The notes under the pieces: generated by a model
The model's database searches: none
Told to the model about the DNA's origin: nothing
Seen by the model: the letters and a program-made list of their open reading frames with translations, nothing else
Part shown: piece by piece, positions 9,011 to 49,385 of the stretch
How positions within the stretch are numbered: the first letter of the stretch is position 1
How the letters are laid out: every line of letters begins with the position of its first letter
From: Candidatus Harrisonbacteria bacterium
Lineage (GTDB): Bacteria > Patescibacteriota > Minisyncoccia > UBA6257 > UBA11618
Assembly: GCA_016867415.1 (NCBI GenBank)
Contig: VGJO01000002.1
Span: 118,472 to 182,471 of the forward strand
Length of the DNA stretch: 64,000 nucleotides
Reading direction: 5' to 3'
Position numbers and translations under genes: made by a program

Positions 9011-10171
9011 CTATTCAACTTCAGATAAATAATCCTTGCAAGCCACTTTAATATTATCAGGTAGCTTCTGGCTAATATTTTTATATAAAATCACAAAATT
9101 CTTACATTCTTCTCGACTAAAAGTAGTAACCAATTGATTTTTTTTATCTTTACTCTTAATCCTTTGAGCAAAAACCTTACAGGCTTGTTTCGGATCTTTA
9201 CCCAAGCTATTAAGATAAGAAAAAAAATCATTCCTCATCGCAACATCATAATTAAAGTTAGCCTTTCCAGTCGGATTAAGAACTTCTTTAATTTCAGGAA
9301 TTTTATCAATAATGCCGGTTTGTAAAGTTTTACCCCGAATCACAAGAGAAATAAATTTATAGTAAATATCATATCCATATTTATCAATAAAATAACCGGC
9401 TATTAAGGCTCCAGAGTTATAAAGGTCATAAACTTCCTGTTTATCTTGAGAATAAGCCTCTATTTTAAAAAAGGAATCAAAAGAACGACATAACCCGGTA
9501 GGACCAAAAATAATCTTCTTCCTTTCAAAAAACTGCAGGCAAGTTCGATTAACAAAAGACTCGCTCTCTTCTAAAGTACAAGTACCTTCATCAAAGCATC
9601 GAGGAAGAGGGGTTTGGAACATTCGACCCAAAAGTACATGAGATATTTCATGAGGAGCAATATTATCAAGTACATATTGAAAATCATTAGCAATAAAAAA
9701 CATGGTGAAAGTATTGTTTAAGAAAGAAGTTTTACCCTTTCCGAAAAAAGTTAAAAATGTATTTCCACTACCAGCCGGCTCAGAAAGATTAGGGAAAAAA
9801 ATGGAATTAAGTTTAATCTTCACATTTATATAAATATCATCTCCTCGAAGACTACAATTTTGCCTATCACAAAAATTTTTATATTGATCCGCCATTGCAT
9901 CCGCTATTTTTTCAAAATCAACAGCTCGTAAAACAATATCAGAAGAGATAGGAGCTAATTGATCACTTTTTTCAAGATCAGCAATAGGCTGATCTCCAGG
10001 CGTTTGAGAAAAAGTAAAATGAATGACAATTTTAGTTCCATCTTTGTCGGCTATTACCGTCCTTACTATTTCTTCAGTTGCAAGAGAAAGAGCATAAGAA
10101 AAGTAAAAAAATAAGAATAAGAATAAAAAAGTATTTTTAAAATAAAAAAGGAAACCCTTAAAGTTAATCAT
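9011..10171 (-). CDS. Secreted hypothetical protein with HExxH zinc-metallopeptidase-like motif
   Basis: 386 aa; hydrophobic N-terminal signal/anchor (FLFLFLFFYFSYALSLA); HEISHVLLG motif; A/T-rich codon usage. Confidence 0.55.
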   Translation of the reverse strand: MINFKGFLFYFKNTFLFLFLFFYFSYALSLATEEIVRTVIADKDGTKIVIHFTFSQTPGDQPIADLEKSDQLAPISSDIVLRAVDFEKIADAMADQYKNFCDRQNCSLRGDDIYINVKIKLNSIFFPNLSEPAGSGNTFLTFFGKGKTSFLNNTFTMFFIANDFQYVLDNIAPHEISHVLLGRMFQTPLPRCFDEGTCTLEESESFVNRTCLQFFERKKIIFGPTGLCRSFDSFFKIEAYSQDKQEVYDLYNSGALIAGYFIDKYGYDIYYKFISLVIRGKTLQTGIIDKIPEIKEVLNPTGKANFNYDVAMRNDFFSYLNSLGKDPKQACKVFAQRIKSKDKKNQLVTTFSREECKNFVILYKNISQKLPDNIKVACKDYLSEVE

Positions 10172-10980
10172 CTTTTTGGAGCATGCATTTCAATACTTTT
10201 AGCTAGATCTTCAATATTTTTCTTATACCAGTCTTCCCCAAAATTATCTAATAAGACTTTCCTTAAAACAGGATCATTTTTCATATCTGTTATCAATCTT
10301 CTGGTAACTCTTGCCGTAGGCACTATTCCGACTTGATAAATGTTTTCTGTATTAGGAAAATAACCATCATTAATGAGAGTGAACACATCTTTAATATAAG
10401 CAGAATTCTTTTCTAAAAAATCCTTAACCAAAGACCTATAGATTGGTAGAGTAGGATCATTGGGATAATTATCTTGAAGATGACGCAATATAGAGATTCC
10501 AAAGATCATAAAAGCCGCATTCCCCTCTGATAAATTACCCAAATCAGTTGTATTAGGATCAGAAGTTTTGATATTTCTATTACTTCTCACCATTTGTAAT
10601 CTCCATACATTACCAAAATAATAAGCGTCCATCTCATCAAAAAGATAAGACAATTGGGTCCAATAATTATTAGAAAAATAGGTTCCTGACTTTCTGCAAT
10701 ATTTAGCCATATCTTTAGGAATATAAGGTCGTTGGGTATAAGCTTGCAAAGTACTCTGAGATTGAGGGATTACATAAAAGCAAACTCTTTTTGGAGCATT
10801 TCCAGAAAATTGAATATCTTTTACTAGACAAGCAAAAGTATTAGGCTTCTTCCCAGCATTTTTAATGCATCCTACAAGCTTCGTTATAGCCATGAATTTT
10901 TTCGTGAACATTATTATCAGAAAAATTTTTAGAAAGAGCTTCTCTGCAAAGAGCATTATCGCCGCAAGAAGCAAGGTCAT
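10168..10980 (-). CDS. hypothetical protein (start uncertain; ATGA overlap with downstream gene)
   Basis: 270-aa ORF; hydrophobic N-terminus; 5' end overlaps the neighbouring ORF in another frame, so an internal Met start is possible. Confidence 0.45.
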   Translation of the reverse strand: MTLLLAAIMLFAEKLFLKIFLIIMFTKKFMAITKLVGCIKNAGKKPNTFACLVKDIQFSGNAPKRVCFYVIPQSQSTLQAYTQRPYIPKDMAKYCRKSGTYFSNNYWTQLSYLFDEMDAYYFGNVWRLQMVRSNRNIKTSDPNTTDLGNLSEGNAAFMIFGISILRHLQDNYPNDPTLPIYRSLVKDFLEKNSAYIKDVFTLINDGYFPNTENIYQVGIVPTARVTRRLITDMKNDPVLRKVLLDNFGEDWYKKNIEDLAKSIEMHAPKR

Positions 10981-11311
10981 TTACATCATTAATACAAAAA
11001 AAATTAATATCAGATAGATCATTATTATGATTAGTAGGCCCCCGACTATTTAAAACATCGAGTTTACTCTGAAACTCATTTACATCTTTGGCTTTTATTA
11101 TATGAATAATCCTTTTACCATCTTTAAATTCAAAAATACAATTCGAACCCAAAAATCCATCATCGCGAAAAGAGATTATTTTTTTTGTTAAATTTTCTCG
11201 CACAAGAGAATTAATAGAAGAATCATCACAGGCTATTAAAGAATATCGAAGATCCTGAGCAAAAGAAAAAAAAGGAGCAAAAAACAATAGAAGAAGAAAG
11301 AAAAATCTCAT
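10862..11311 (-). CDS. Secreted hypothetical protein
   Basis: ORF 10862..11404; internal Met gives signal peptide MRFFFLLLLFFAPFFSFAQD and removes overlap with upstream gene. Confidence 0.45.
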   Translation of the reverse strand: MRFFFLLLLFFAPFFSFAQDLRYSLIACDDSSINSLVRENLTKKIISFRDDGFLGSNCIFEFKDGKRIIHIIKAKDVNEFQSKLDVLNSRGPTNHNNDLSDINFFCINDVNDLASCGDNALCREALSKNFSDNNVHEKIHGYNEACRMH

Positions 11312-11315
11312 GAAG

Positions 11316-12380
11316 TTAGAAGACACTCCCCACCAAATCAGAAGAATTAGATAATGACCTTTTACATTCTTGAACAGCTTGATCAATCTTATTATTAAAA
11401 TCATTTTTAGCAGTAGCTAAAGCAGCTAGTAAATTCTGATTATTTCTTTGGCTAACAAGATCGGACAGATCTTTAAGAGCCTCATAAGCTAATTGAAAAT
11501 TTTCATTTTTCTTAATTAATGCATCTCGGGTACACTGACCAGGAATAGTATTAGACGAAAGCGAATTATTACCTTCCGGCATAATCACCTGCGGCGGCAA
11601 CTGCATCCGAGCTAAACAATCTTTATAATCTTTATACGCTGCCTGTATTGCCGCAATCTTTTTCTCTGATTCATCTGCGTTGATAGCACAATTAAACGAA
11701 GTCAAAGTTTTTAATAACTTCTGAATCTCGGGAATAGTATTCGATACAAAGTTATCTATATTCAGATCTTTTCCATTTACATAATCCTTAACCGAATCGA
11801 CAAAGTCCACCACATCTTTCTTTTCTTTTGGAGATAAACGACAATACTTGTTTTGAGCTAAATTGACATACCGATCATAAGGCAACCCTCGAATAAGAGT
11901 AATAAGATCACTTTTTTTCTTATCTAGTTCCGCCTTATCCGGTATCGCTGGCTCCAAAAGTCCAGAATTTTTTCTCGCTTCAGTCACAAGACCGCTCACA
12001 TACGCCTCCTTATTCTCTCGCTTGGCATACGCTTCCGGGTCCCCAATCCGTCCCATCACATAGGAAGCAATGCTATTTGCATTTCCTTCGTTAATTCCAT
12101 TAAGCTTCGCCGCATCATTCGGATCAAGCGGGGTATCAAAAAGATACTTCGGTGAGGTGACATTAAAAGTAATCGTATGCGGCCCCAGTTTTCTCACGCA
12201 GGTATAGGTCGTGTGATAAACAGCGTCATCTCCCGGCTTGCACTCCGCCGCCTGCACCTCCTCCGCTAACGGAAAAATAGTTTTTTGTTTAGCAACAACA
12301 AGCAAAAGTAAACTTACAAAAATAAGAGAAAGAATCAAATATTTTTTTCTGTTATTTCCAGTATTTTTTTTCTTTTTCAT
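11316..12380 (-). CDS. Secreted hypothetical protein
   Basis: 354 aa; N-terminal KKKK + hydrophobic signal (YLILSLIFVSLLLLVVA); several Cys; no known motif. Confidence 0.55.
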   Translation of the reverse strand: MKKKKNTGNNRKKYLILSLIFVSLLLLVVAKQKTIFPLAEEVQAAECKPGDDAVYHTTYTCVRKLGPHTITFNVTSPKYLFDTPLDPNDAAKLNGINEGNANSIASYVMGRIGDPEAYAKRENKEAYVSGLVTEARKNSGLLEPAIPDKAELDKKKSDLITLIRGLPYDRYVNLAQNKYCRLSPKEKKDVVDFVDSVKDYVNGKDLNIDNFVSNTIPEIQKLLKTLTSFNCAINADESEKKIAAIQAAYKDYKDCLARMQLPPQVIMPEGNNSLSSNTIPGQCTRDALIKKNENFQLAYEALKDLSDLVSQRNNQNLLAALATAKNDFNNKIDQAVQECKRSLSNSSDLVGSVF

Positions 12381-12383
12381 GAA

Positions 12384-13832
12384 TTAATTAAAATTTCTAA
12401 ATTCTGAAACACGCCACGGTTGAAGTTCAGGATGAGGATATTTATCTACATCGTAGTAAAAGACAGGAATAACACTACCGTCTTTCTGAAACTTGCTATA
12501 ATTTTTATAAGAATGAGGCTTAGCTTCCTGACATGGTACGCACCACGAAGTAGACAGTTGGAGTCGAAATGGTTTGCCGCTCGCCTTTAGTTCCTCAAAC
12601 TGATTATTATCTATTTCAAATGACATCCCTTTTCGAGGATCATCAGGCTTTAGAAGATTATTATTCGGCTGCGTCGCCGGCTTCAAACACGCTACTAGTT
12701 TAATCGGACCAGGCAATTTCACCGCCACCGTCACCTTTGATCCGCATTTTTTATCATTTTCCTCTTTAAGCCGCATAAGCTCATATTCAATCTTCGCTTT
12801 TTTGTCCGACACACTGCACGCCGCCGCTTTCCCCTCTAGTTCATTTTTCTGTTTTTCATAGGTATCGCAAAAAAACTGATCATTTTCCTTAAACGGGGTA
12901 AATGAACAATCATCCTTTTGCTTCTTCAAGCACGCCTGCACCGATTTCAAAAGATCCCCTATATTAAATTTACCTGGATCAGGATATAGATATTTCTCTC
13001 CATCTTTCTCCACGTCCGCTGTTAAGATTTTTAACTCCCACACAAGCGAATAATACGACAACAGCGGTCTTTGAGGAGGTTCAGGTAATGCATTTATTTT
13101 ATTAATGAGCTCAAAAACCACATCTCGATTCTTATTAATATCTTGGAATTTTTTATTTACTTCCACAATATTTGAACCATTCTTTGCAATGGCTGGAATT
13201 TGAAAAATTCCTTTTACATAATTTTTTCCGTTATACTTATCTGCATTATATTTTGCAATCGCCTCATTCGCCGCCTTAATCGCCTTATCGCAATCCGGAG
13301 AAACAATACACGGTTTTTCTTTTATTATTTTATAAGGACCAAAAACCTTCCCATTCTTAGCATTAGTAATAGTAATATATGACTCTCCTTTCTCTTCTTT
13401 TATTGTAACTTCATCACCAGGATAAATTAGTATACAACTAGTCTCTTCTCCATTCTCATCAACTGTACATACTTGTTCCACATTCTTATTCTTATCTTTT
13501 TCCTCCTTCTCATTCTTATATTTAACCTTACATCCTCCCTTACATAAATCAGCTAAAGAAGTATCTGAAGGAACAATATCCACTCCCGAATCATCCATCT
13601 TCCCCGAAAGACAAACTTTCAATTTCTGAGTCAGGGTTTGTACTTCTTTTTTTAGATCTTCAAGCTTAAAAAAATCATCATTATTTATGGCCTCTCGCAG
13701 TAATTCTCTCGCCTTCCTAAGTTCTTCAGAGATAGCCCCGCAATCCGGCCGGGCTTCTTGAGCAAAAGCAAATTGAAAAGAAAAAATACTCAAGAAAAAC
13801 CCCATTAAGAAAAACCAAGCGCTATATTTCAT
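12384..13832 (-). CDS. Cys-rich secreted hypothetical protein with C-terminal thioredoxin-like WCxPC motif
   Basis: ORF 12384..13886; signal peptide from internal Met (MKYSAWFFLMGFFLSIFSFQFAFAQE); about 24 Cys; C-terminal FRLQLSTSWCVPCQ resembles the Trx active-site context (F.AEWCGPCK). Confidence 0.55.
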   Translation of the reverse strand: MKYSAWFFLMGFFLSIFSFQFAFAQEARPDCGAISEELRKARELLREAINNDDFFKLEDLKKEVQTLTQKLKVCLSGKMDDSGVDIVPSDTSLADLCKGGCKVKYKNEKEEKDKNKNVEQVCTVDENGEETSCILIYPGDEVTIKEEKGESYITITNAKNGKVFGPYKIIKEKPCIVSPDCDKAIKAANEAIAKYNADKYNGKNYVKGIFQIPAIAKNGSNIVEVNKKFQDINKNRDVVFELINKINALPEPPQRPLLSYYSLVWELKILTADVEKDGEKYLYPDPGKFNIGDLLKSVQACLKKQKDDCSFTPFKENDQFFCDTYEKQKNELEGKAAACSVSDKKAKIEYELMRLKEENDKKCGSKVTVAVKLPGPIKLVACLKPATQPNNNLLKPDDPRKGMSFEIDNNQFEELKASGKPFRLQLSTSWCVPCQEAKPHSYKNYSKFQKDGSVIPVFYYDVDKYPHPELQPWRVSEFRNFN

Positions 13833-13882
13833 AAACTCTTTCTTGAAGAATATCATAATAAAAAAAGAATGTTTTCCCCAGA

Positions 13883-15604
13883 TCACGGCATCTGCACAAC
13901 CGGCATCGTGATTCCGCCTCGACTTCGCTTATACTGCTTCGGCGGAGTATTAGAGACCTCGTTCACCGCCTCCTGTATCTTCGCCCGCTTAAGCGCCTCC
14001 TCAGCTTCTTTTAAAAGCTCCTCCGCCTCTTCTTTTAATTCCTTCTGAAGCTTCGCCCGCTTAAGCGCCTCCTCAGCTTCTTTTAAAAGCTCCTCCGCCT
14101 CTTCTTTTAATTCCTTCTGAAGCTTCGCCCGCTCAAGCGCCTCCTCAGCTTCTTTTAAAAGCTCCTCCGCCTCTTCTTTTAATCTCTTTTCTTTCATTAG
14201 TCCATTCCCCTTCATACAGTAAGATGGTAAAAGCTTTTGCACCTCCACATCACTAATTGCAAGAACTCTCAGATCGAAATCAGAAAGCTTTTTGGCATTA
14301 TCAATAAAATCACAGATATCATTCACCTTATTATCATCAATATCTTTGATATCTTTTATTTTTTGTTCAATTTCTTTCTTCATCTCACGAAGAGTGGCAA
14401 GATTTGCGTTGATTTTATTCCTATTCTTTTCTGTATTAACAACTGCTACATCCACCCATCCTAAACCTTTTCCTTCACTTAGATTTTTAAACAATTCCTC
14501 AAGCCTATTCACTCGCCCCCAAATCACCTGCAACACTGATTGTAGATTATTCTTCATCAAAACTACCTGCCCTCTATCACAAATCGCTTCTCCCTTCGAA
14601 ATCGTCAGAAAGTCGTTAATAAGTTCAGAAAGTCGTAAAAGATCCTTTTCTTCTCCGCTTCGTTTTTTACCTAGAATTAATGGATCTACTATAGTCACCG
14701 ACCCCCCAATAACCGCCACATGATTATTAGCGTTTTCCATTTGCACCAATTCATTCGCAATAGTAATAAGATACCAATTAATATTTCCTAAAAATGAAAT
14801 ATTAGAAAGCACCTCTTGCACACCTTCTAAGATCTGCTTCTTGGCACTACTTACAATAGCAAGAGAGTCTGCTAAAAATACATTTTCAATATTAGTCTTC
14901 ACTTCATTAAGTACCAGACCCTTTATAAGCTCCTCCGCCGCTCCATACTTCTCCGCAAAAAGATCTGCTAACCGCTCGATCAAATTATCGGGTGATTCCG
15001 TATTCCCTTCTACAAACTTCGTCACGTCTGTAAGAAATTCGAAGACCTCGCTTGGGAAAAGTTTGTTATCTTTTGATTTTGCGCACATAAGCGCCACTCG
15101 ACCCTTCACGCATGCTTTATACTCAGAAGACACTCGGCGAAAAAGCGACACCGCCAAATCCGTTACTACTTTCTTAAGATTTTCCAGTTTATCCTCATTA
15201 TTCTTAAAAAACTTTTGAAGCACCGTATCTACTCGAGTTCGCTGATCATTTGAAAGCCGGCTATATGACGAACTAAAAAATCCTTGGGACACCTCTTCCA
15301 TGATCTTCTGTTCAATATTGATAAAAAATTCATCCCCGCCTAACTTCTCCTCCACCGCTTCCCGAATCGCTTTCTCCGCCTCATCAGCCAAAGCCGGACT
15401 GTTTAGCATCTCATCTACAAGTGTTTTCACTTTAACACAACCCACCCTACACCTTTGTTTGATAAGATCAGCAAGAGTAGTAGGCATCTCTTGAGTCTCG
15501 GGTGATGGTTTTTTAGATACTTCTTGAGCCAAGCTAAAATAAGGAAAAGAGAAACAAACCGTACTCACTACCAAAAGAAAAATCATACCCGTTCTCGAAA
15601 ACAT
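13883..15604 (-). CDS. Secreted coiled-coil hypothetical protein with 3 tandem 24-aa repeats
   Basis: 573 aa; signal peptide MFSRTGMIFLLVVSTVCFSFPYFSLAQE; C-terminal repeats LQKELKEEAEELLKEAEEALKRAK x3; stop-start overlap ATGA with upstream gene. Confidence 0.6.
   Translation of the reverse strand: MFSRTGMIFLLVVSTVCFSFPYFSLAQEVSKKPSPETQEMPTTLADLIKQRCRVGCVKVKTLVDEMLNSPALADEAEKAIREAVEEKLGGDEFFINIEQKIMEEVSQGFFSSSYSRLSNDQRTRVDTVLQKFFKNNEDKLENLKKVVTDLAVSLFRRVSSEYKACVKGRVALMCAKSKDNKLFPSEVFEFLTDVTKFVEGNTESPDNLIERLADLFAEKYGAAEELIKGLVLNEVKTNIENVFLADSLAIVSSAKKQILEGVQEVLSNISFLGNINWYLITIANELVQMENANNHVAVIGGSVTIVDPLILGKKRSGEEKDLLRLSELINDFLTISKGEAICDRGQVVLMKNNLQSVLQVIWGRVNRLEELFKNLSEGKGLGWVDVAVVNTEKNRNKINANLATLREMKKEIEQKIKDIKDIDDNKVNDICDFIDNAKKLSDFDLRVLAISDVEVQKLLPSYCMKGNGLMKEKRLKEEAEELLKEAEEALERAKLQKELKEEAEELLKEAEEALKRAKLQKELKEEAEELLKEAEEALKRAKIQEAVNEVSNTPPKQYKRSRGGITMPVVQMP
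13975..14195. repeat. Three tandem ~72-bp repeats (coding, inside 13883..15604)
   Basis: cgcccgcttaagcgcctcctcagcttcttttaaaagctcctccgcctcttcttttaattccttctgaagctt repeated 3 times nearly perfectly. Confidence 0.9.
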
Positions 15605-33136: not shown

Positions 33137-34039
33137 TCAGTGATTGTTTAAGATCTGGCTCGGCGTCTTCCCTTGGAAGGAAGACCGGGTCCGCGCCGTC
33201 GAGACTTTCATCTGCGGTTGTTGATACCGCATCTGAGGTTGCACAGTTCGCGGCGCCTGAGAGCCAACAGGGATTACCACCGCGCCCGCCAAGAATCGAT
33301 CTCGTTCTTCTCGAGAGACTTCGGTGCGAACACCGTTTCGCTCAATGAAGAACCGATCCTTACGAACCACCGCCACTTGATCACTCGAGCTTGGCTTCCG
33401 ACCCGGATACGGGCTAAAGGTCGGTTTCGCTTCCGGTTCTTGAACCTTCGGCGTCGAAAGCTTCGGTTGCTTCGGCGTGAGCTGAAGCTCCTGCACCGGC
33501 GGCTCCTCTTCACTGTCGAAGTTGAGCTCGAGTTCCTGCGAAGGCACGGACGGCGAAGCTACTGGTGCCTTCGCCTGCTGACTCTTCGATGCATTCGGCG
33601 GGGCTTGTCGCGTCACCTCCGGCGGTTCTTGCGAACCGCCATTAGTACCCGAAGCCTTCGACGCATTCTTCTGATCAAGGAGCTGTTTGATTCCAGCCAG
33701 CTCATCTGGATTGAGATCCCGAAGCAGAAGTGCTGCGGCCGATGATTGACCTTCTTGGATGAAGATCATATCGTGACTGGTGCCAGCCAGTTGCCGCTTG
33801 ATGGCAACCTTGATCTGATCCTCGAGCGGCAGTGCTTTGAACGCTTCCTCTGCCTTCCGCTGATCAGACTGCAAGACCGAGTCTTGACCTTCGCGCCGAC
33901 CCTGATTCAGAGCCTTTTCGCGAGCCGTCGCGACCGCCTCATCGACAGTCTTCTGGACATTCGGAGAGACGCAGTAAGCGATGATCGCCACAAGCACTCC
34001 GCCGAAAAAAACACCAACGAATTGCCAAAAATTCTTCAC
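33137..34039 (-). CDS. Membrane-anchored low-complexity (Pro/Gln/Ser/Glu-rich) hypothetical protein
   Basis: 300 aa; N-terminal TM FWQFVGVFFGGVLVAIIAYCV; long disordered-looking tail. Confidence 0.5.
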   Translation of the reverse strand: MKNFWQFVGVFFGGVLVAIIAYCVSPNVQKTVDEAVATAREKALNQGRREGQDSVLQSDQRKAEEAFKALPLEDQIKVAIKRQLAGTSHDMIFIQEGQSSAAALLLRDLNPDELAGIKQLLDQKNASKASGTNGGSQEPPEVTRQAPPNASKSQQAKAPVASPSVPSQELELNFDSEEEPPVQELQLTPKQPKLSTPKVQEPEAKPTFSPYPGRKPSSSDQVAVVRKDRFFIERNGVRTEVSREERDRFLAGAVVIPVGSQAPRTVQPQMRYQQPQMKVSTARTRSSFQGKTPSQILNNH

Positions 34040-38880: not shown

Positions 38881-39960
38881 TTATATGCGAATCTCTTTTG
38901 GTAAAAGCGGCTGGGAAAGAATACCCATAAACTGGGGAAAATTTTCCACCGCGATTCCCGTCCCTCGAGCCACGCACGTAAGTGGATCATCTATGATATA
39001 CGTTGATACAAAAAGCTCCTTCGCGACCAGCTCATCAAATTTCTTAAGCATTGATCCTCCTCCGGAAAGAAACACTCCCCGCCGCAAGATATCCCCCGCA
39101 AGCTCCGGCGGAGAGATCTCCAAAACCTCGCGAATCGCATCTACAATCGTCTTCAGAGATCGGATAATTGCAGTCCGCACATGGATATCTTTCACTACCA
39201 CCTCCTTTGGAAGACCCGTCGCCAAATCTCTTCCTTGCACTGCCATCTCAAGCCGCTCCGTAAGGGGCATCGCCGAGCCAATCTGGACTTTGAGCTCCTC
39301 TGCTGTCGGCTCCCCAATTACTAAACGAAATTCATCTCGTACAAATCGGATAATCTCTTCATTAAGCTTGCCTCCGGCAATTTTCAGAGTCTTGCTCTTC
39401 ACCGTCCCATTCATGGAGATAATCGCAATCTCCGTAGTCCCCTCCCCAATATCCACAATCATGCTCGCCGTCGGCTCATCGATCGGCAACCGTGCTCCCA
39501 AAGAGACCGCCAGCGGTTCATCAATCAAATATGCCCTAGAAACTCCGGAAGAGACCACTACATCCTCCACCGACTTTCTTTCGACCTCCGTAAGATTAGA
39601 CGGCACCCCCACGACCGCTCGCCGGAAGTTACCAAAAGCCCCTCCCCCCAAAGCCTGTTTCAAAAAAGTCTTTAGAATCTCCTGAGTCACCTCAAAGTCA
39701 GAAATTACTCCGTTTACAATCGGCTTCACTACTTCTACATGCAAAGGCGTCCGTCCCATCATCTTCTTTGCCTCATCCCCCACCGCGATCACCTGCCCTG
39801 TCTTAGTATTGATGGCTGCAAGCGTCGCTTCTTTCACCACAATCCCGCTCCCTGCCACATAAATAAGCGTATGTGCCGTCCCTAAATCAATCCCTACATC
39901 CTTCGCAAAATAATGAAGAGGATTAAAACCAAATTCCGTCAACTTGGAAAAAGAAAACAT
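38881..39960 (-). CDS. mreB: Rod shape-determining protein MreB (actin homolog)
   Basis: 359 aa; IDLGTAHTLIYV phosphate-1, DIGEGTTEIAIIS phosphate-2, FLSGGGS adenosine motifs. Confidence 0.92.
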   Translation of the reverse strand: MFSFSKLTEFGFNPLHYFAKDVGIDLGTAHTLIYVAGSGIVVKEATLAAINTKTGQVIAVGDEAKKMMGRTPLHVEVVKPIVNGVISDFEVTQEILKTFLKQALGGGAFGNFRRAVVGVPSNLTEVERKSVEDVVVSSGVSRAYLIDEPLAVSLGARLPIDEPTASMIVDIGEGTTEIAIISMNGTVKSKTLKIAGGKLNEEIIRFVRDEFRLVIGEPTAEELKVQIGSAMPLTERLEMAVQGRDLATGLPKEVVVKDIHVRTAIIRSLKTIVDAIREVLEISPPELAGDILRRGVFLSGGGSMLKKFDELVAKELFVSTYIIDDPLTCVARGTGIAVENFPQFMGILSQPLLPKEIRI

Positions 39961-44643: not shown

Positions 44644-44808
44644 AGTCTTTTCTATACTAATCCCTTTTCCTTTAAAAATAAAAAGGTTGGCGCGAAATGT
44701 AAGCCTACCTAGGGATGAGTCTCTCTTAAAGGGAGAATAGAAAAACTTATATTTCTCTCCTTGCTTTTATCTACACCATTCATGTATTTTATAAACACTT
44801 CCATGCCC

Positions 44809-45816
44809 ATGTTTGTCCGAAAAATTGGTATTGATCTTGGCACGGTAAATACCGTCGTCTATGCAGAAGGCCTTGGTTTTGTGGTCAATGAGCCCACAAT
44901 AGTTGCTCTTTCCTACCCCGACAACACCGTCATCGCCGTCGGTCGCGAAGCAAAGGAAATGGTGGGCAAGACTCCCGAAGACATCGTCGCTTACCGTCCA
45001 CTCAAAGACGGTGTCATCGCTGACTATTATATTACGCGCGCGATGCTCAAGTATTTCATTAGTAAAGCTCTGGGTAATTTTAATTTTTTCAAACCCGATC
45101 TGGTAATCAGCGCTCCCGCTGGCATCACCCCTAACGAAAAAAGAGCGATTACAAACGCCGCCTTGGAATCAGGTGCGAAGACCGTTGCTATAGTAAAAGA
45201 GCCTATCCTCGCCGCTCTTGGTGCTGGCATCCCGATCAACTCTCACTCGGGTAATATGATCATCAATATCGGCGGTGGCACGGCTGAAGTCGCAGTCATC
45301 TCCTTAGGCTCCGTCGTCTCCTGGTCATCGCTACGCGTCGCCGGAAACAAATTTGATCAAGCGATTATCGATCTTATTAAACGAAAATATTCTCTCTCTA
45401 TTGGCGAGCAAACCGCCGAAACTATCAAAATCCAGATCGGCGCCGCCCTCCCCGCCCGCCAAAAGCTCGAAATGGAGACTCGCGGTCGCGACCTCATCTC
45501 CGGCCTGCCAAAAAATATCATAGTCAATTCCAATGAAATCGCCGAAGCCTTGAATCCCCACCTCATGGATATTGCCACCGCCGCTCAAAATGTCTTCAAC
45601 AATACCCCGCCCGAGCTCGTCGCCGACGTTATGGAAAAAGGCATTATTATCTCTGGTGGCGGCGCCCAGATCCGCTACATTGATGAGTTCTTCAAGCGGA
45701 TGCTTGGCGTCGAGGCCTACATCGCCGAAGAGCCTCTTTTCTGCGTCGCCAAAGGATCCTCTCTCATCCTCTCCCACCTCGACACATACAAACGCACCCT
45801 CTTAAACAAAAGATAA
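44809..45816 (+). CDS. Second MreB/Mbl-like actin homolog
   Basis: ORF 44761..45816; MreB motifs from internal Met: IGIDLGTVNTVVY, NIGGGTAEVAVIS, IISGGGAQI; one of only three plus-strand genes. Confidence 0.85.
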   Translation: MFVRKIGIDLGTVNTVVYAEGLGFVVNEPTIVALSYPDNTVIAVGREAKEMVGKTPEDIVAYRPLKDGVIADYYITRAMLKYFISKALGNFNFFKPDLVISAPAGITPNEKRAITNAALESGAKTVAIVKEPILAALGAGIPINSHSGNMIINIGGGTAEVAVISLGSVVSWSSLRVAGNKFDQAIIDLIKRKYSLSIGEQTAETIKIQIGAALPARQKLEMETRGRDLISGLPKNIIVNSNEIAEALNPHLMDIATAAQNVFNNTPPELVADVMEKGIIISGGGAQIRYIDEFFKRMLGVEAYIAEEPLFCVAKGSSLILSHLDTYKRTLLNKR

Positions 45817-45980: not shown

Positions 45981-47276
45981 TTATTTTTCTCTTACTATCT
46001 CTGCCCCCAACACCCTCAATCTCCCATCAATCTCGGCATACCCCCGATCGATTTCCTCTACCCCAGAAATTACTGACTCTCCCTCAGCAATCAAAGCTGC
46101 AATGAGATTCACCATCCCTGATCGCAAATCCCGCACCGTCGTCTCTACCGCAATAAGATTCGTCGGCCCTTCAATCACTGCCACATGCCGAAATCCTTTT
46201 CCACTATAGTGACATTCCTCCCCTTTCGGACACTCGGTCTTAATCTCTATCTTTGCTCCCATCGCAATAAGATCATCAGCGTAATGAAACCGATCTTCAT
46301 AGATCGTCTCATGCATCACCGATCTTCCCTTCGCCTGCGTAAGCAAGGCCACAAATGGCTGCTGCCAATCCGTCATAAAGCCCGGATGGGGCGCCGTCAT
46401 AATCTCCGTCCCGATAAGCTCCTTTGCCCGGAAAAAACGAATTCCTTCTTCCTTTACCTCATACTCTCCTCCTACTCGCCGAAATGCATTTAGAAAATTA
46501 ATAAGAGTATCTTGCCTTGCCCCTTTGGCAAAAATATCTCCATTAGTCGCCGCCGCAAGGCAAGCAAAAGATACTACCTCATTTCTGTCCGTGATCACCT
46601 CATGCGTCACGCCATGAAGTTTCTTTACCCCTTCAATAAAAATTTTCCGATCCACCCCCATTTCAATAATTGCTCCCATTTTCTGGAGCATCTTAATAAG
46701 TTCCATTATCTCTGGTTCTACCGCCGCTCCAGTAATTATCGTCTTTCCCGAAGCCAAAACTGCTGCTAAAAGAGTATTCTCAGTCGCTCCTACTGATGGA
46801 AATGAGAGATGAATCTCCGCTCCATGCAGACCCTCCAACGCCTCAGCGTAGTAGGTATGATCGCGCACCTCAATCCTTGCTCCTAGTTTTTGAAGCGCTT
46901 CGATATGCAAATTTACTGGCCTCGCCCCAATCTTATCCCCCCCCAAAAATGGCACTTCCACTCTTCCCACTCGAGCAAGAAGAGGCCCAAAAGCCAAAAT
47001 AGGGATTCGATTTCTCCGCGACAAAGTGAGCGCCTGAAAATTTTCTATTTTTTCCGTCCGAATCCGAAGACTATCTCCCTCGTGAATAATGTCACTCCCA
47101 AAAACACTCAAGAGTTCTTCGGTAATCTCAATATCCCCAATTTTAGGAAAATTATTCAGCACACATTCTTCATCAGTAAGAAGCGAAGCGATCATCATCT
47201 TCGTCGCCGCATTTTTCGCTCCAGAAATATTCGCCTCTCCCCTCAGCGCTTTTCCACCCCGAACCCTGAATTTCAT
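45981..47276 (-). CDS. murA: UDP-N-acetylglucosamine 1-carboxyvinyltransferase
   Basis: 431 aa; N-terminus KFRVRGGKALRGEANISGAKNA; typical two-domain EPT fold signature. Confidence 0.9.
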   Translation of the reverse strand: MKFRVRGGKALRGEANISGAKNAATKMMIASLLTDEECVLNNFPKIGDIEITEELLSVFGSDIIHEGDSLRIRTEKIENFQALTLSRRNRIPILAFGPLLARVGRVEVPFLGGDKIGARPVNLHIEALQKLGARIEVRDHTYYAEALEGLHGAEIHLSFPSVGATENTLLAAVLASGKTIITGAAVEPEIMELIKMLQKMGAIIEMGVDRKIFIEGVKKLHGVTHEVITDRNEVVSFACLAAATNGDIFAKGARQDTLINFLNAFRRVGGEYEVKEEGIRFFRAKELIGTEIMTAPHPGFMTDWQQPFVALLTQAKGRSVMHETIYEDRFHYADDLIAMGAKIEIKTECPKGEECHYSGKGFRHVAVIEGPTNLIAVETTVRDLRSGMVNLIAALIAEGESVISGVEEIDRGYAEIDGRLRVLGAEIVREK

Positions 47277-47505: not shown

Positions 47506-48939
47506 TTAAGGGAATTGATGCAAAAAATCAAAAAAGTGGTAGATGGCAGGTGGCAGTATCGGTAGTAATGATTGCAGTAATAGTAGTGATAATGCAGGTG
47601 CAGGTGCAGGTGCAGGTGTAGGTGCAGGTGTAGGTGCAGGTGTAGGTGTAGATGTAGGTTCAGGTGTAGGTGTAGGTGTAGGAGTAGGTGTAGGAGTAGG
47701 TGTAGGAGTAGGAGGAGGAGCAGGAGGAGGAGCAGGAGGAGGAGGAGGAGGTGGAGGAGGAGGAGGAGGAGGTGGAGGTGGAGGTGGAGGTGGAGGTGGA
47801 GGAGGAGGTGGAGGTGGAGGTGGAGGTGGAGGAGGAGTAAGTTCAGTTGCATGAGGAGGTTCAGGTGTAGGTTCAGGTGTAGGTTCAAGTGTAGGTGAGC
47901 CGTCTACTAGGGCGCCGCCATCGCCGCCATTGCCGCGATTGCCGCCATCGCCACCATTGCCACCATTGCCACCATTGCCGCCATTGCCGCCATTGCCGCG
48001 ATTGCCGCCATTGCCGCCATCGCCGCCATTGCCGCCATCGCCTGTATTGCCTGTATTGTCTGTATTGCCTGTGAATCCAGTCAACTTTGAAATTTCATTT
48101 AATATTAGTTTACGTTCATCAGAATCTCTCAAAAATTTTTCGGCTATTTTTTCAATTTTCGCTTCTATTTCGGCTTGGCTTTTTGGTGACCAAGATTCAA
48201 TAGCGGCAGGCAAAGAACTGGCTTCAATAAAACTATCATTGATGAATACTGGCACTTCTTCTCTCCTTGATTCTCCTCCATACGCTTGGGCTGTTAACCT
48301 CCCCATTTCATTGTTCTTATTCGAAGCAAATCCCCGTTTCCATCCCAATTTTTGCTCTATCCATCTGACCACCCACTGCTCAAAGGATTCGGCCGCTGCC
48401 GCATTCGCCTGCAAGCTTGCGAATCGGACACCCACCGAATAACTCCCGAAAGTATAGTGGTAAAAAAACAATGTATCTTCATTTGTATCCGGATTAATTC
48501 CATTTTTCCCGTTTTGTGGATCAATCGGCAAAGCATCAATCTGAATCCCAGGAATCTGCCGAAAATCAATTGGTAGCCAACCACTTCCATCAATCTGCGT
48601 AAGTCGCTCTTTTGGCACACATCGGTAATCATACCCCTCCGCTAATTGAAGCAAACCCCGATCTCTCCAATAGCCACAAGTCGGATCATCATCTGGTAAG
48701 GAAACATAGACAAGCCGCCGCTCCCCTAAAAGAGCATATTGAGCCTGCTCATCTATAAAGCTAATAAGTTGAGAAAGAAACTTAAGATCTTTATTGCGTT
48801 GCCGATCTACCTGAAAACGAAAAAATTCCAAAGGATTAATCGTCACCGAAAATACCCCTGCAATAAGAAAAAAAGACACCCCGATAAGCAAGGCTTTCAC
48901 CGGAAAAGATAAACGCTCGAGCCTCTGCATGAGCTCCAT
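47506..48939 (-). CDS. Membrane-anchored/secreted hypothetical protein with GN-rich, poly-Pro (34 P) and (TP)n tail
   Basis: 477 aa; N-terminal TM ALLIGVSFFLIAGVF; ~300-aa globular region; then GNGGNGGDGG repeats, P34 run, TPTPTP repeats, hydrophobic C-terminus. Confidence 0.65.
   Translation of the reverse strand: MELMQRLERLSFPVKALLIGVSFFLIAGVFSVTINPLEFFRFQVDRQRNKDLKFLSQLISFIDEQAQYALLGERRLVYVSLPDDDPTCGYWRDRGLLQLAEGYDYRCVPKERLTQIDGSGWLPIDFRQIPGIQIDALPIDPQNGKNGINPDTNEDTLFFYHYTFGSYSVGVRFASLQANAAAAESFEQWVVRWIEQKLGWKRGFASNKNNEMGRLTAQAYGGESRREEVPVFINDSFIEASSLPAAIESWSPKSQAEIEAKIEKIAEKFLRDSDERKLILNEISKLTGFTGNTDNTGNTGDGGNGGDGGNGGNRGNGGNGGNGGNGGNGGDGGNRGNGGDGGALVDGSPTLEPTPEPTPEPPHATELTPPPPPPPPPPPPPPPPPPPPPPPPPPPPPPPPPPAPPPAPPPTPTPTPTPTPTPTPTPEPTSTPTPAPTPAPTPAPAPAPALSLLLLQSLLPILPPAIYHFFDFLHQFP
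47594..48062. repeat. Coding simple-sequence repeats (hexamer ggtgca/ggtgta, trimer gga/ggt, nonamer gccgccatt)
   Basis: Visible runs caggtgcaggtgcaggtgtagg..., ggaggaggaggtggaggtgg..., gccattgccgccattgccgcgattgcc... Confidence 0.9.
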
Positions 48940-48962: not shown

Positions 48963-49385
48963 TTATTTATTCTCCACAAACGCCTTCTTTCTAGGCCAAA
49001 AAAAACTAAAAAATACGAGCGCACCAGAAAGATCATTCATGAAATCAGTCATAGTGTCCGGCAAGCCTGGCTGAAGAAAATGTTTTTGTAAATAAAGATC
49101 GCCTAGGAATTCATACCCTTCCCACAGCACCGAAAAAAGCGCCACAAATGAGAGACCAAAAAAAAGCCGCAACCACGGCTTCCCTAAAGTCTCAGCAATT
49201 CCAGTCCGATAGATAAAAAAATCAAAAAGAGATGCAAGCCATACCCCTCCTGAAAAGTGTAAAATATTATCTGTCCAAAGTGATTGGAAATGCCAGCCAA
49301 AATAAAGCGTCAACCAAAAACCAAAAACTAAGACAAAAGAGAAAAGAGCGGCCCTTCGGGCCGTCACTTTTATCGCTTGCTCCAC
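48963..49385 (-). CDS. Polytopic membrane hypothetical protein
   Basis: 140 aa; 3-4 predicted TM helices; 16-nt overlap with rpsI. Confidence 0.45.
   Translation of the reverse strand: MEQAIKVTARRAALFSFVLVFGFWLTLYFGWHFQSLWTDNILHFSGGVWLASLFDFFIYRTGIAETLGKPWLRLFFGLSFVALFSVLWEGYEFLGDLYLQKHFLQPGLPDTMTDFMNDLSGALVFFSFFWPRKKAFVENK

Follow-up and report, generated by a model that had tools for sequence, protein, structure and literature searches.

What kind of protein is encoded by a gene whose 3' third consists of simple-sequence DNA and whose product carries 34 prolines in a row? This question is raised by an open reading frame (ORF) at 47506-48939 on the minus strand of a 64,000-nucleotide stretch of a Candidatus Harrisonbacteria bacterium genome (assembly GCA_016867415.1, contig VGJO01000002.1, positions 118,472 to 182,471; this whole stretch is referred to as the window), which represents a housekeeping stretch of a Patescibacteria genome with genes for ribosomal proteins, rpoA, murA, mreB, gyrB, dnaE and others. 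The sequence-only reading of this ORF that preceded the present analysis had proposed a cell-surface spacer or adhesin-like protein with an N-terminal transmembrane (TM) segment, a globular domain, a Pro-rich stalk and a hydrophobic end. The strong N-terminal TM helix, the head domain and the extended Pro-rich region indeed fit an exposed envelope protein; what had been missed is the derivation from a pilin. The product is interpreted here, with a probability of roughly 55%, as an envelope protein of Patescibacteria (Paceibacteria-like) that would represent a membrane-anchored former pilin with a fast-evolving, extended stalk. The ORF and its parts, numbered by window position and by amino acid (aa), are as follows:

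47506-48939, minus strand: whole ORF, 477 aa and a stop codon, predicted to encode a pilin-derived surface protein
48895-48939, minus strand: N-terminal leader, aa 1-15 (MELMQRLERLSFPVK), in the register given by hhalign
48841-48894, minus strand: hydrophobic helix, aa 16-33, equivalent of pilin alpha1N (Kyte-Doolittle)
48415-48840, minus strand: pilin-like alpha1C and head domain, aa 34-175 (phmmer, subfamily alignment, hhalign)
48079-48414, minus strand: predicted helical segment, aa 176-287 (AlphaFold2 secondary structure, low confidence)
47914-48078, minus strand: Gly/Asn/Asp-rich repeats (GNG/GDG)n, aa 288-342, of 9-nt units
47836-47913, minus strand: linker ALVDGSPTLEPTPEPTPEPPHATELT, aa 343-368, including a 12-nt (EPTP) repeat (Tandem Repeats Finder, translation)
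47734-47835, minus strand: 34 consecutive prolines (P34), aa 369-402, encoded by CCTCCA/CCT mosaic DNA
47593-47733, minus strand: APPPAPPP, (TP)n and (AP)n repeats, aa 403-449, of 6- and 12-nt units
47509-47592, minus strand: 28-aa C-terminal tail LSLLLLQSLLPILPPAIYHFFDFLHQFP, weakly hydrophobic and aromatic (Kyte-Doolittle)

Origin of the N-terminal module

The whole protein yielded no match in Pfam or NCBIfam, the only NCBIfam row being a low-complexity one to IsdX2 (E 0.15), and a comparison of aa 1-287 with PDB sequences returned nothing useful. A word-indexed homologue search retrieved two proteins, or seven when a profile was used; the family was revealed by an exhaustive phmmer search against 1.84 billion representatives, in which 1288 relatives were identified (530 at E<=1e-10), all of them matching residues ~10-180. 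P0002, a protein from Patescibacteria annotated as 'type II secretion system protein', was shown to be 36% identical over the first 148 residues (BLASTP) and to pass the Pfam N_methyl cut-off (26.1 versus 21.2 bits). Among the best 150 of the 1288 relatives, the distant ones (designated here as canonical relatives) carry the canonical (S/G/A)-F-T-L-I-E-L-L prepilin motif, and the closest ~17, at 40-46% identity, share the absence of this motif with the protein under study (designated here as the subfamily).

Alignment of the subfamily with 40 canonical relatives using hhalign gave a probability of 100% (E 2.9e-46, 157 columns), in a register that places Lys15 (48895-48897) at pilin Glu5, Leu10 at position -1 and Ser11 at +1. 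These comparisons identify residues ~12-175, encompassing the TM helix, alpha1C and a head with a Cys pair, as homologous to a large patescibacterial pilin-like family. Both this protein and patescibacterial pilin-like proteins such as P0002 are modular, with a variable C-terminal part, and the homology extends over the TM helix, alpha1C and the head (NPxE..RD..R..DL, VYxSLPD, Cys pair, GWxP(I/V)D, LPIDPxN). In the subfamily alignment, the head motifs were represented by NPxEF..RDRQR..DL, VYxSLPD, GWLPID and LPIDPxNG, with Cys88 and Cys107 being invariant. In one relative, P0018 (697 aa), three tandem head sub-domains (SxPxxxxxC...YxC...NGSGWxPxD...LPI) are followed by a lectin-like region, and on the basis of these tandem copies the head appears able to act as a repeatable module.

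The N-terminal helix (aa 16-34) reaches a Kyte-Doolittle 19-residue maximum of 2.44, and the arrangement typical of type IV pilins, in which ~21 hydrophobic residues (alpha1N) are followed by an amphipathic alpha1C, was recognised in the protein. AlphaFold2 (AF2) predicted a continuous helix at residues 12-33 and 36-65, the spacing to the NP motif being equal to that of the canonical relatives. The N-terminal part is predicted to comprise a TM helix, a head of ~140 aa and a helical segment rather than a single globule of 300 aa. The canonical family profile matched solved pilins (PilA, GspG, PpdD and geopilin) at alpha1N only, and no solved homologue of the head was found. Of the two checks that had been suggested for this part of the protein, the homology search revealed the pilin family, while structure prediction with AF2 produced poor models; a Foldseek search of PDB with the second of these models gave no match below E 1 and was disregarded. 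Because the models are poor, the pilin fold of the head is deduced from sequence homology only.

Degeneration of the class III signal

Pfam N_methyl (PF07963) was detected in none of 19 subfamily members, compared with 37 of 40 canonical relatives. For column counts, sequences were anchored on the NP motif (111 canonical relatives and 15 subfamily sequences). Position -1 was S/G/A in 109 of the 111 canonical relatives, and Phe1, Thr2 and Glu5 were each present in 110. In the subfamily, the residues at -1 and +1 vary, and position +5 is occupied by Arg (nine sequences), Lys (four) or Gln (two). The protein under study, whose Lys is additional to the 15 sequences counted, has Leu at -1, Ser11 at +1 and Lys15 at +5, and lacks the small -1 residue, Phe1 and Glu5 of a class III signal. 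Values for alpha1N and alpha1C were 2.03 and 1.15 bits, respectively, in the subfamily, compared with 1.25 and 1.60 bits in the canonical relatives, indicative of inverted constraint: the canonical alpha1N is better conserved than alpha1C, whereas in the subfamily alpha1N is conserved much worse. The ORF already uses the earliest start codon available downstream of a stop, which leaves no room for a hidden canonical leader.

The column counts indicate that the subfamily has lost the class III signal, with the small -1 residue, Phe1 and Thr2 gone and Glu5 replaced by Lys/Arg. To judge from its alignments the module is pilin-derived, yet the defining signal features of type IV pilins are absent. 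This would represent a clade-wide conversion of a pilin module, encompassing loss of the prepilin signal, the exchange of Glu5 for Lys/Arg and relaxed constraint on the core helix.

Chromosomal location and distal regions

Scans of genome and metagenome contigs with the single protein as query returned nothing; with a 5-sequence alignment as query, subfamily members were retrieved from a Candidatus Harrisonbacteria metagenome-assembled genome (MAG) and related MAGs (species-representative genomes and metagenomes). Three loci (L007, L008 and L026) exhibit the order rpoA-rplQ-rplM-rpsI-(small membrane protein)-subfamily gene-murA-mreB, and the rpsI side is arranged in the same way in L078. Two further loci (L077, 502-3188; L079, 3-1952) harbour two subfamily paralogues in tandem, directly upstream of murA. 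Conservation of murA was observed in all seven related loci examined (those named here are L007, L008, L026, L077 and L079, plus L078 for the rpsI side). The gene under study is a positional orthologue, located upstream of murA and, where that flank was captured, downstream of rpsI. In the tandem pairs, one paralogue is long, with TSP3 repeats or a Cys-rich end, and the other is short, with a C...CC end.

Compared with the Harrisonbacteria orthologue, MurA is 64% identical, while the protein under study aligns in the head only (48%). The orthologues, of 722 and 631 aa, possess unrelated C-terminal regions, in which an S/N-rich or P/G-rich linker leads to folded or TSP3-containing modules. A feature common to the subfamily is a linker of low complexity, rich in P, S/N or E, after the helical segment; TSP3_bac was detected in six of 19 subfamily members, and Laminin_G_3 (lectin-like) was present in 23 of 40 canonical relatives. 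For the protein under study, no domain was detected after aa 175 (Pfam, NCBIfam), and no hidden C-terminal domain was found in other frames downstream of the repeats. As far as alignment reveals, the C-terminal region differs in every lineage, being represented here by a predicted helical segment and a low-complexity stretch of ~160 residues encoded by repeats. Among 150 family representatives, proline runs reached at most 10 residues.

The immediate neighbours of the gene in the window are:

45981-47276, minus strand: murA, downstream neighbour
48963-49385, minus strand: small membrane protein of 140 aa, upstream neighbour, syntenic in L007, L008 and L078

The product of 48963-49385 is assigned to Pfam DUF2238 in precomputed tables; our own hmmscan at E<=1 found no family. 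A terminator-like hairpin (49349-49363) is located inside the annotated 5' end of this gene, which is why its true start may lie further downstream. The mreB gene at 44761-45816 (plus strand) is convergent with murA. In three related genomes (L007, 5815-6822; L008, 3971-4978; L026, 8308-9315), mreB follows murA on the same strand, which points to a local inversion of mreB here, and the same-species contig L065 shares the inverted arrangement. A second mreB paralogue is present at 38881-39960, beside mreC/mreD/PBP2-like genes.

Repeat tract and variation within the species

The run of 34 prolines, the (TP)n and the (GNG/GDG)n repeats described in the sequence-only reading were confirmed, both in translation and by Tandem Repeats Finder (TRF). 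The latter reported GCCGCCATT x14.3 (plus strand, 47914-48042, score 195), GCCTGTATT x3.7 with a 9-nt unit (plus strand, 48040-48072), an AGGTGG-type 6-nt array x40 (47596-47837, score 211) and a 12-nt array at 47857-47896. The DNA at the poly-Pro run had been described as a trinucleotide repeat; the repeat is real, but it mixes CCTCCA with CCT tracts, the longest perfect one measuring 35 nt, and is not a pure trinucleotide. Every repeat unit is a multiple of 3 nt, no stop interrupts the ~480 nt of repeats and the ORF is open for all 477 codons, in agreement with the earlier view that the repeats are coding.

The repeats had furthermore been regarded as unusual for a reduced genome, and within the 64-kb window the tract does stand out. 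Its short-unit arrays outscore all other short-unit arrays there, the only higher TRF score being that of a 72-bp x2.8 repeat elsewhere, and P34 is the sole run of at least four prolines in any minus-strand frame. GC skew is positive in one of 64 1-kb bins, namely the bin with most of the repeat tract. The other 63 bins of the window (1-64000) have a negative GC skew, and nearly all genes are located on the minus strand. A promoter and terminator scan yielded nothing above shuffled expectation.

Variation was assessed at the level of assemblies rather than reads. More than 20 same-species contigs were obtained from independent JGI, ENA and Logan assemblies through exact-protein look-up of two neighbouring genes. 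The species is represented in samples JGI 3300020197, 3300020198, 3300020200 and 3300020214, SRR16108669-76, ERR14789947, ERR14822405 and ERR14822415. Short-read contigs mostly end inside perfect tracts (47766-47808, 47606-47666 and 47970-48034), and for this reason the gene is rarely assembled whole and such genes are probably under-counted in MAGs. Contigs spanning the gene encode products of 477 aa (L006, an independent JGI contig, whose product is identical to that of the window), 473 aa (L059) and 470 aa (L058).

Within the species, copy number in the repeat arrays rises and falls by whole units, the frame being preserved. One 12-nt ACACCTGCACCT unit of the TP/AP array is missing from L059, one 9-nt unit of the GN array is missing from L068, and L063, derived from a strain that is 99.5% identical in the flank, exhibits a different TP arrangement. 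The in-frame length variation that had been predicted from slipped-strand mispairing is thus observed between assemblies, and the suggested population-level examination of repeat polymorphism revealed whole-unit differences between same-species assemblies. As in contingency loci, unit copy number differs between strains, the contig flanks being at least 99.5% identical; on/off phase variation through out-of-frame units was not found, as all units preserve the frame.

Mis-assembly of the repeats, which had been put forward as a threat to their reality, is largely dispelled for P34, which is unchanged across four assemblies (those of the window, L006, L058 and L059). The 3' junction is not fully cleared: the window-type junction was found in nine of 10 contigs, and L058 carries two extra GCACCT units over the junction (net +1 nt), which alters the last 28 residues only and converts the tail to ITAIITTDTATCHLPLF. 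Because this variant frameshifts the tail, the hydrophobic end proposed earlier is not a reliable feature of the protein. The tail was also shown to be weakly hydrophobic (Kyte-Doolittle 19-residue maximum of 1.67, compared with 2.44 for the N-terminal helix; three prolines and one Gln) and is not present in orthologues L007, L008 and L026, and its significance is doubtful. An xVYxxF C-terminal motif shared with the Harrisonbacteria orthologue was considered and dropped, being too short and absent from L026.

A more divergent allele was encountered in L001, which, like L005, is derived from a strain ~99.5-99.75% identical to that of the window. Both contigs are near-identical to the window up to position 48282 (aa ~219), past which L001 first falls to approximately three-quarters identity, with indels, and further on can no longer be aligned; the order of a helical, a G/D/N-rich and a P-containing segment is kept in this allele. 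In L001, a stop occurs after aa 235 and the frame continues in another phase, where the allele turns divergent, while L005 carries a 1-nt deletion in a GGGG run. The disruption sites are located at L001 860-1181 and L005 7758-8420 (window 48726 and 48282). These disruptions could reflect pseudogenisation, phase variation or contig error.

The gene combines a fixed chromosomal place with a C-terminal half that is replaced per lineage and with repeat slippage within one species. Since its position is fixed while its C-terminal half changes, it represents a candidate fast-evolving surface determinant, with possible relevance to host range and to phage or predator escape.

Proposed membrane anchoring and alternative explanations

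The hydrophobic helix at aa 16-33 is probably, by its sequence, a signal-anchor. With its basic residue ahead of ~19 hydrophobic ones, the segment would act as an ordinary Sec signal-anchor (N-in, C-out), by which the protein would stay in the membrane with its pilin-like head outside, being neither cut by prepilin peptidase nor polymerised. The G/N segment would provide flexibility, and a rigid polyproline-II rod formed by the Pro-rich segment would carry the C-terminus out through the wall or S-layer. For runs of P, TP, AP and EP, the expected conformation is that of extended polyproline-II spacer segments, with a rise of ~0.31 nm per residue. P34 would measure ~10 nm (34 x ~0.31 nm) and aa 343-449 up to ~30 nm if fully extended, a length that would enable the stalk to span a wall or S-layer. 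Through slipped-strand changes and the replacement of alleles, the part that is exposed would be tuned or diversified. The lifestyle of Patescibacteria is one of attachment to other cells, pilin-type proteins being the best candidates for host contact, and to our knowledge their pilin repertoire has barely been characterised.

Several observations weigh against such a membrane-anchored former pilin. The AF2 models exhibited low predicted local distance difference test (pLDDT) values of 38.8 (single sequence) and 51.8 (6-sequence alignment), and no distal or binding module is recognisable, unlike in relatives with TSP3 repeats, Cys-rich ends or Laminin_G_3. The gene looks interrupted in a sister strain (L001, L005), and the Lys/Arg that takes the place of Glu5 could be involved in specific pairing rather than serving as a positive-inside residue. 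Moreover, 34 consecutive prolines are expected to stall ribosomes, in line with EF-P biology, and no efp gene was found in the 64-kb window; the gene provides a test case of how a minimal translation apparatus deals with 34 consecutive prolines. The EF-P requirement for consecutive prolines is cited as reference 41 in PMC12992588.

Among the alternatives, the one that survives best, although unlikely, is a non-canonical minor or tip pilin that would be incorporated first or last, with Lys/Arg5 paired with the Glu5 of a neighbour and the Pro-rich tail displayed from the pilus. Such a role is consistent with the conservation of the pilin module, in which alpha1C and head residues are invariant, and with a charge reversal that falls exactly in the Glu5 column. 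Other systems offer parallels. PilX1 and PilX2 of Nanosynbacter lyticus TM7x are large minor pilins that are also reported to be without predicted PilD signal peptides, PilX2 being needed for host binding (PMC11623550). Compared by description rather than by sequence, they resemble the protein under study in having a patescibacterial pilin-type N-terminal module and a large C-terminal extension, but they are encoded in pilus loci and contain folded jelly-roll or beta-propeller domains, whereas the present gene lies between rpsI and murA and its extension is helical and low-complexity only. GspK-type tip pseudopilins likewise lack Glu5 (bioRxiv 10.1101/2025.02.12.637803); GspK, however, keeps the prepilin cleavage site and a non-polar +5 residue, whereas the present protein has lost this site and bears a basic residue at +5.

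Modular pilins are thought to be tip-exposed (PMC8179133), and PilB and PilC of Streptococcus sanguinis, described in the same work, also carry a C-terminal graft on a pilin module. Their signal is a canonical class III one processed by PilD, and a short linker leads to a vWA or lectin module, in contrast to the non-canonical signal and the ~160-residue low-complexity stalk found here; fusion of the pilin module to a folded functional module, which characterises modular pilins, was not observed. Canonical pilin-like proteins of Patescibacteria possess a class III signal, and many of them carry Laminin_G_3 (ConA-like) at the C-terminus. The protein under study differs from them, as does its subfamily, in the absence of S/G/A(-1)-F-T-L-I-E and of an N_methyl match and in the replacement of Glu5 by Lys/Arg, and, unlike many of them, this protein has no lectin module.

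Incorporation into a pilus is further argued against by the subfamily being devoid of a small -1 residue or a conserved cleavage context and by alpha1N, which packs the filament core, no longer being conserved. The conserved neighbours are murA, rpsI and the membrane protein rather than pil genes. No pilus machinery gene or pilin was found within the 64-kb window, which is a weak argument, as the canonical pilin-like relatives are likewise scattered.

Somewhat less probable than a tip pilin is a charge-reversed pilin partner, i.e. an unprocessed protein whose conserved Lys/Arg would dock on Glu5 of canonical pilins in the membrane and which would prime, cap or tether a type IV pilus in these ultrasmall cells, the lineage-specific C-terminal region (here a polyproline line of ~30 nm) reaching the host. 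If true, this would constitute a pilus component not described before, conserved beside murA in a Paceibacteria clade. Modular pilins (PMC8179133) and large patescibacterial pilins without PilD signals (PMC11623550) have already been described; in the literature searched, no description was found of the Glu5-to-Lys/Arg subfamily, its fixed place beside murA or an extreme repeat-encoded polyproline stalk that varies within a species.

Equally doubtful is a cleavable Sec signal peptide, cut near [AS]-[IV]-T-I-N-P, following which the protein would be released or wall-associated, or would be held by its C-terminal tail with a wall-spanning Pro-rich region and a distal functional head. Subfamily members conserve a small residue (Ala or Ser) three positions ahead of the NP motif, the order of head, Pro-rich region and hydrophobic segment resembles that of wall-spanning regions next to C-terminal anchors, and the conserved part is the head rather than the tail. 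A hydrophobic core of 18-20 residues is, however, long for a cleaved signal peptide. Anchoring by the tail is made less likely by its weak hydrophobicity and its prolines and Gln, by the lack of an LPXTG-like motif or a basic end, by orthologues that end in soluble modules without such a tail, and by the frameshift that replaces it in one variant.

Pro-rich spacers are known from the Pro-rich region of TonB, the wall-spanning regions of Gram-positive bacteria and the PT linkers of glycoside hydrolases; compared with these, the present protein stands apart by its uninterrupted P34 and has neither an LPXTG/sortase signal nor a TonB C-terminal domain. An LPXTG (sortase-anchored) surface protein was ruled out, as the tail exhibits no LPXTG, no basic end and weak hydrophobicity. 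Calcium-binding RTX repeats (GGxGxDxUx) were similarly ruled out, given a unit of 3 aa (GNG/GDG) with no hydrophobic position and no Pfam match, and a PEP-CTERM reading of the repeats or tail was rejected on motif grounds.

Least probable of all is that the low-complexity third is functionless, resulting from neutral simple-sequence expansion in a decaying or dispensable gene, or that its lengths and 3' junction are short-read artefacts: contig breaks inside perfect tracts, the +1 junction variant of one assembly (L058), the sister-strain lesions (stop and frameshift in L001, 1-nt deletion in L005) and the missing distal module point in this direction, but the repeats stay in an open frame over ~480 nt, units in multiples of 3 and changes of -9 and -12 nt preserve that frame, P34 and the window-type junction recur across assemblies, orthologues of other lineages also have a low-complexity linker at the same place, and the divergent allele of L001 retains the segment order.

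Additional features of the window

Six consecutive ORFs (386, 270, 180, 354, 500 and 573 aa) are located at 9011-15604 on the minus strand in an AT-rich region (GC 0.31-0.41), most of them with N-terminal hydrophobic segments. No Pfam family was detected in these ORFs at E<=0.01, besides a sub-threshold thioredoxin-like end in 12384-13886. The region may be an acquired island, or its genes may form a cluster for secreted or surface proteins. The ORF at 13883-15604 contains the near-perfect 72-bp x2.8 tandem repeat mentioned above (13979-14183, 99% matches, TRF score 403), which encodes helical units of the KELKEEAEELLKEAEEALKRAKLQ type. At 33137-34039 (minus strand), a local GC peak of 0.55 coincides with an ORF of 300 aa whose product combines an N-terminal TM helix with a low-complexity body rich in P, Q, S and K and may be another envelope protein.

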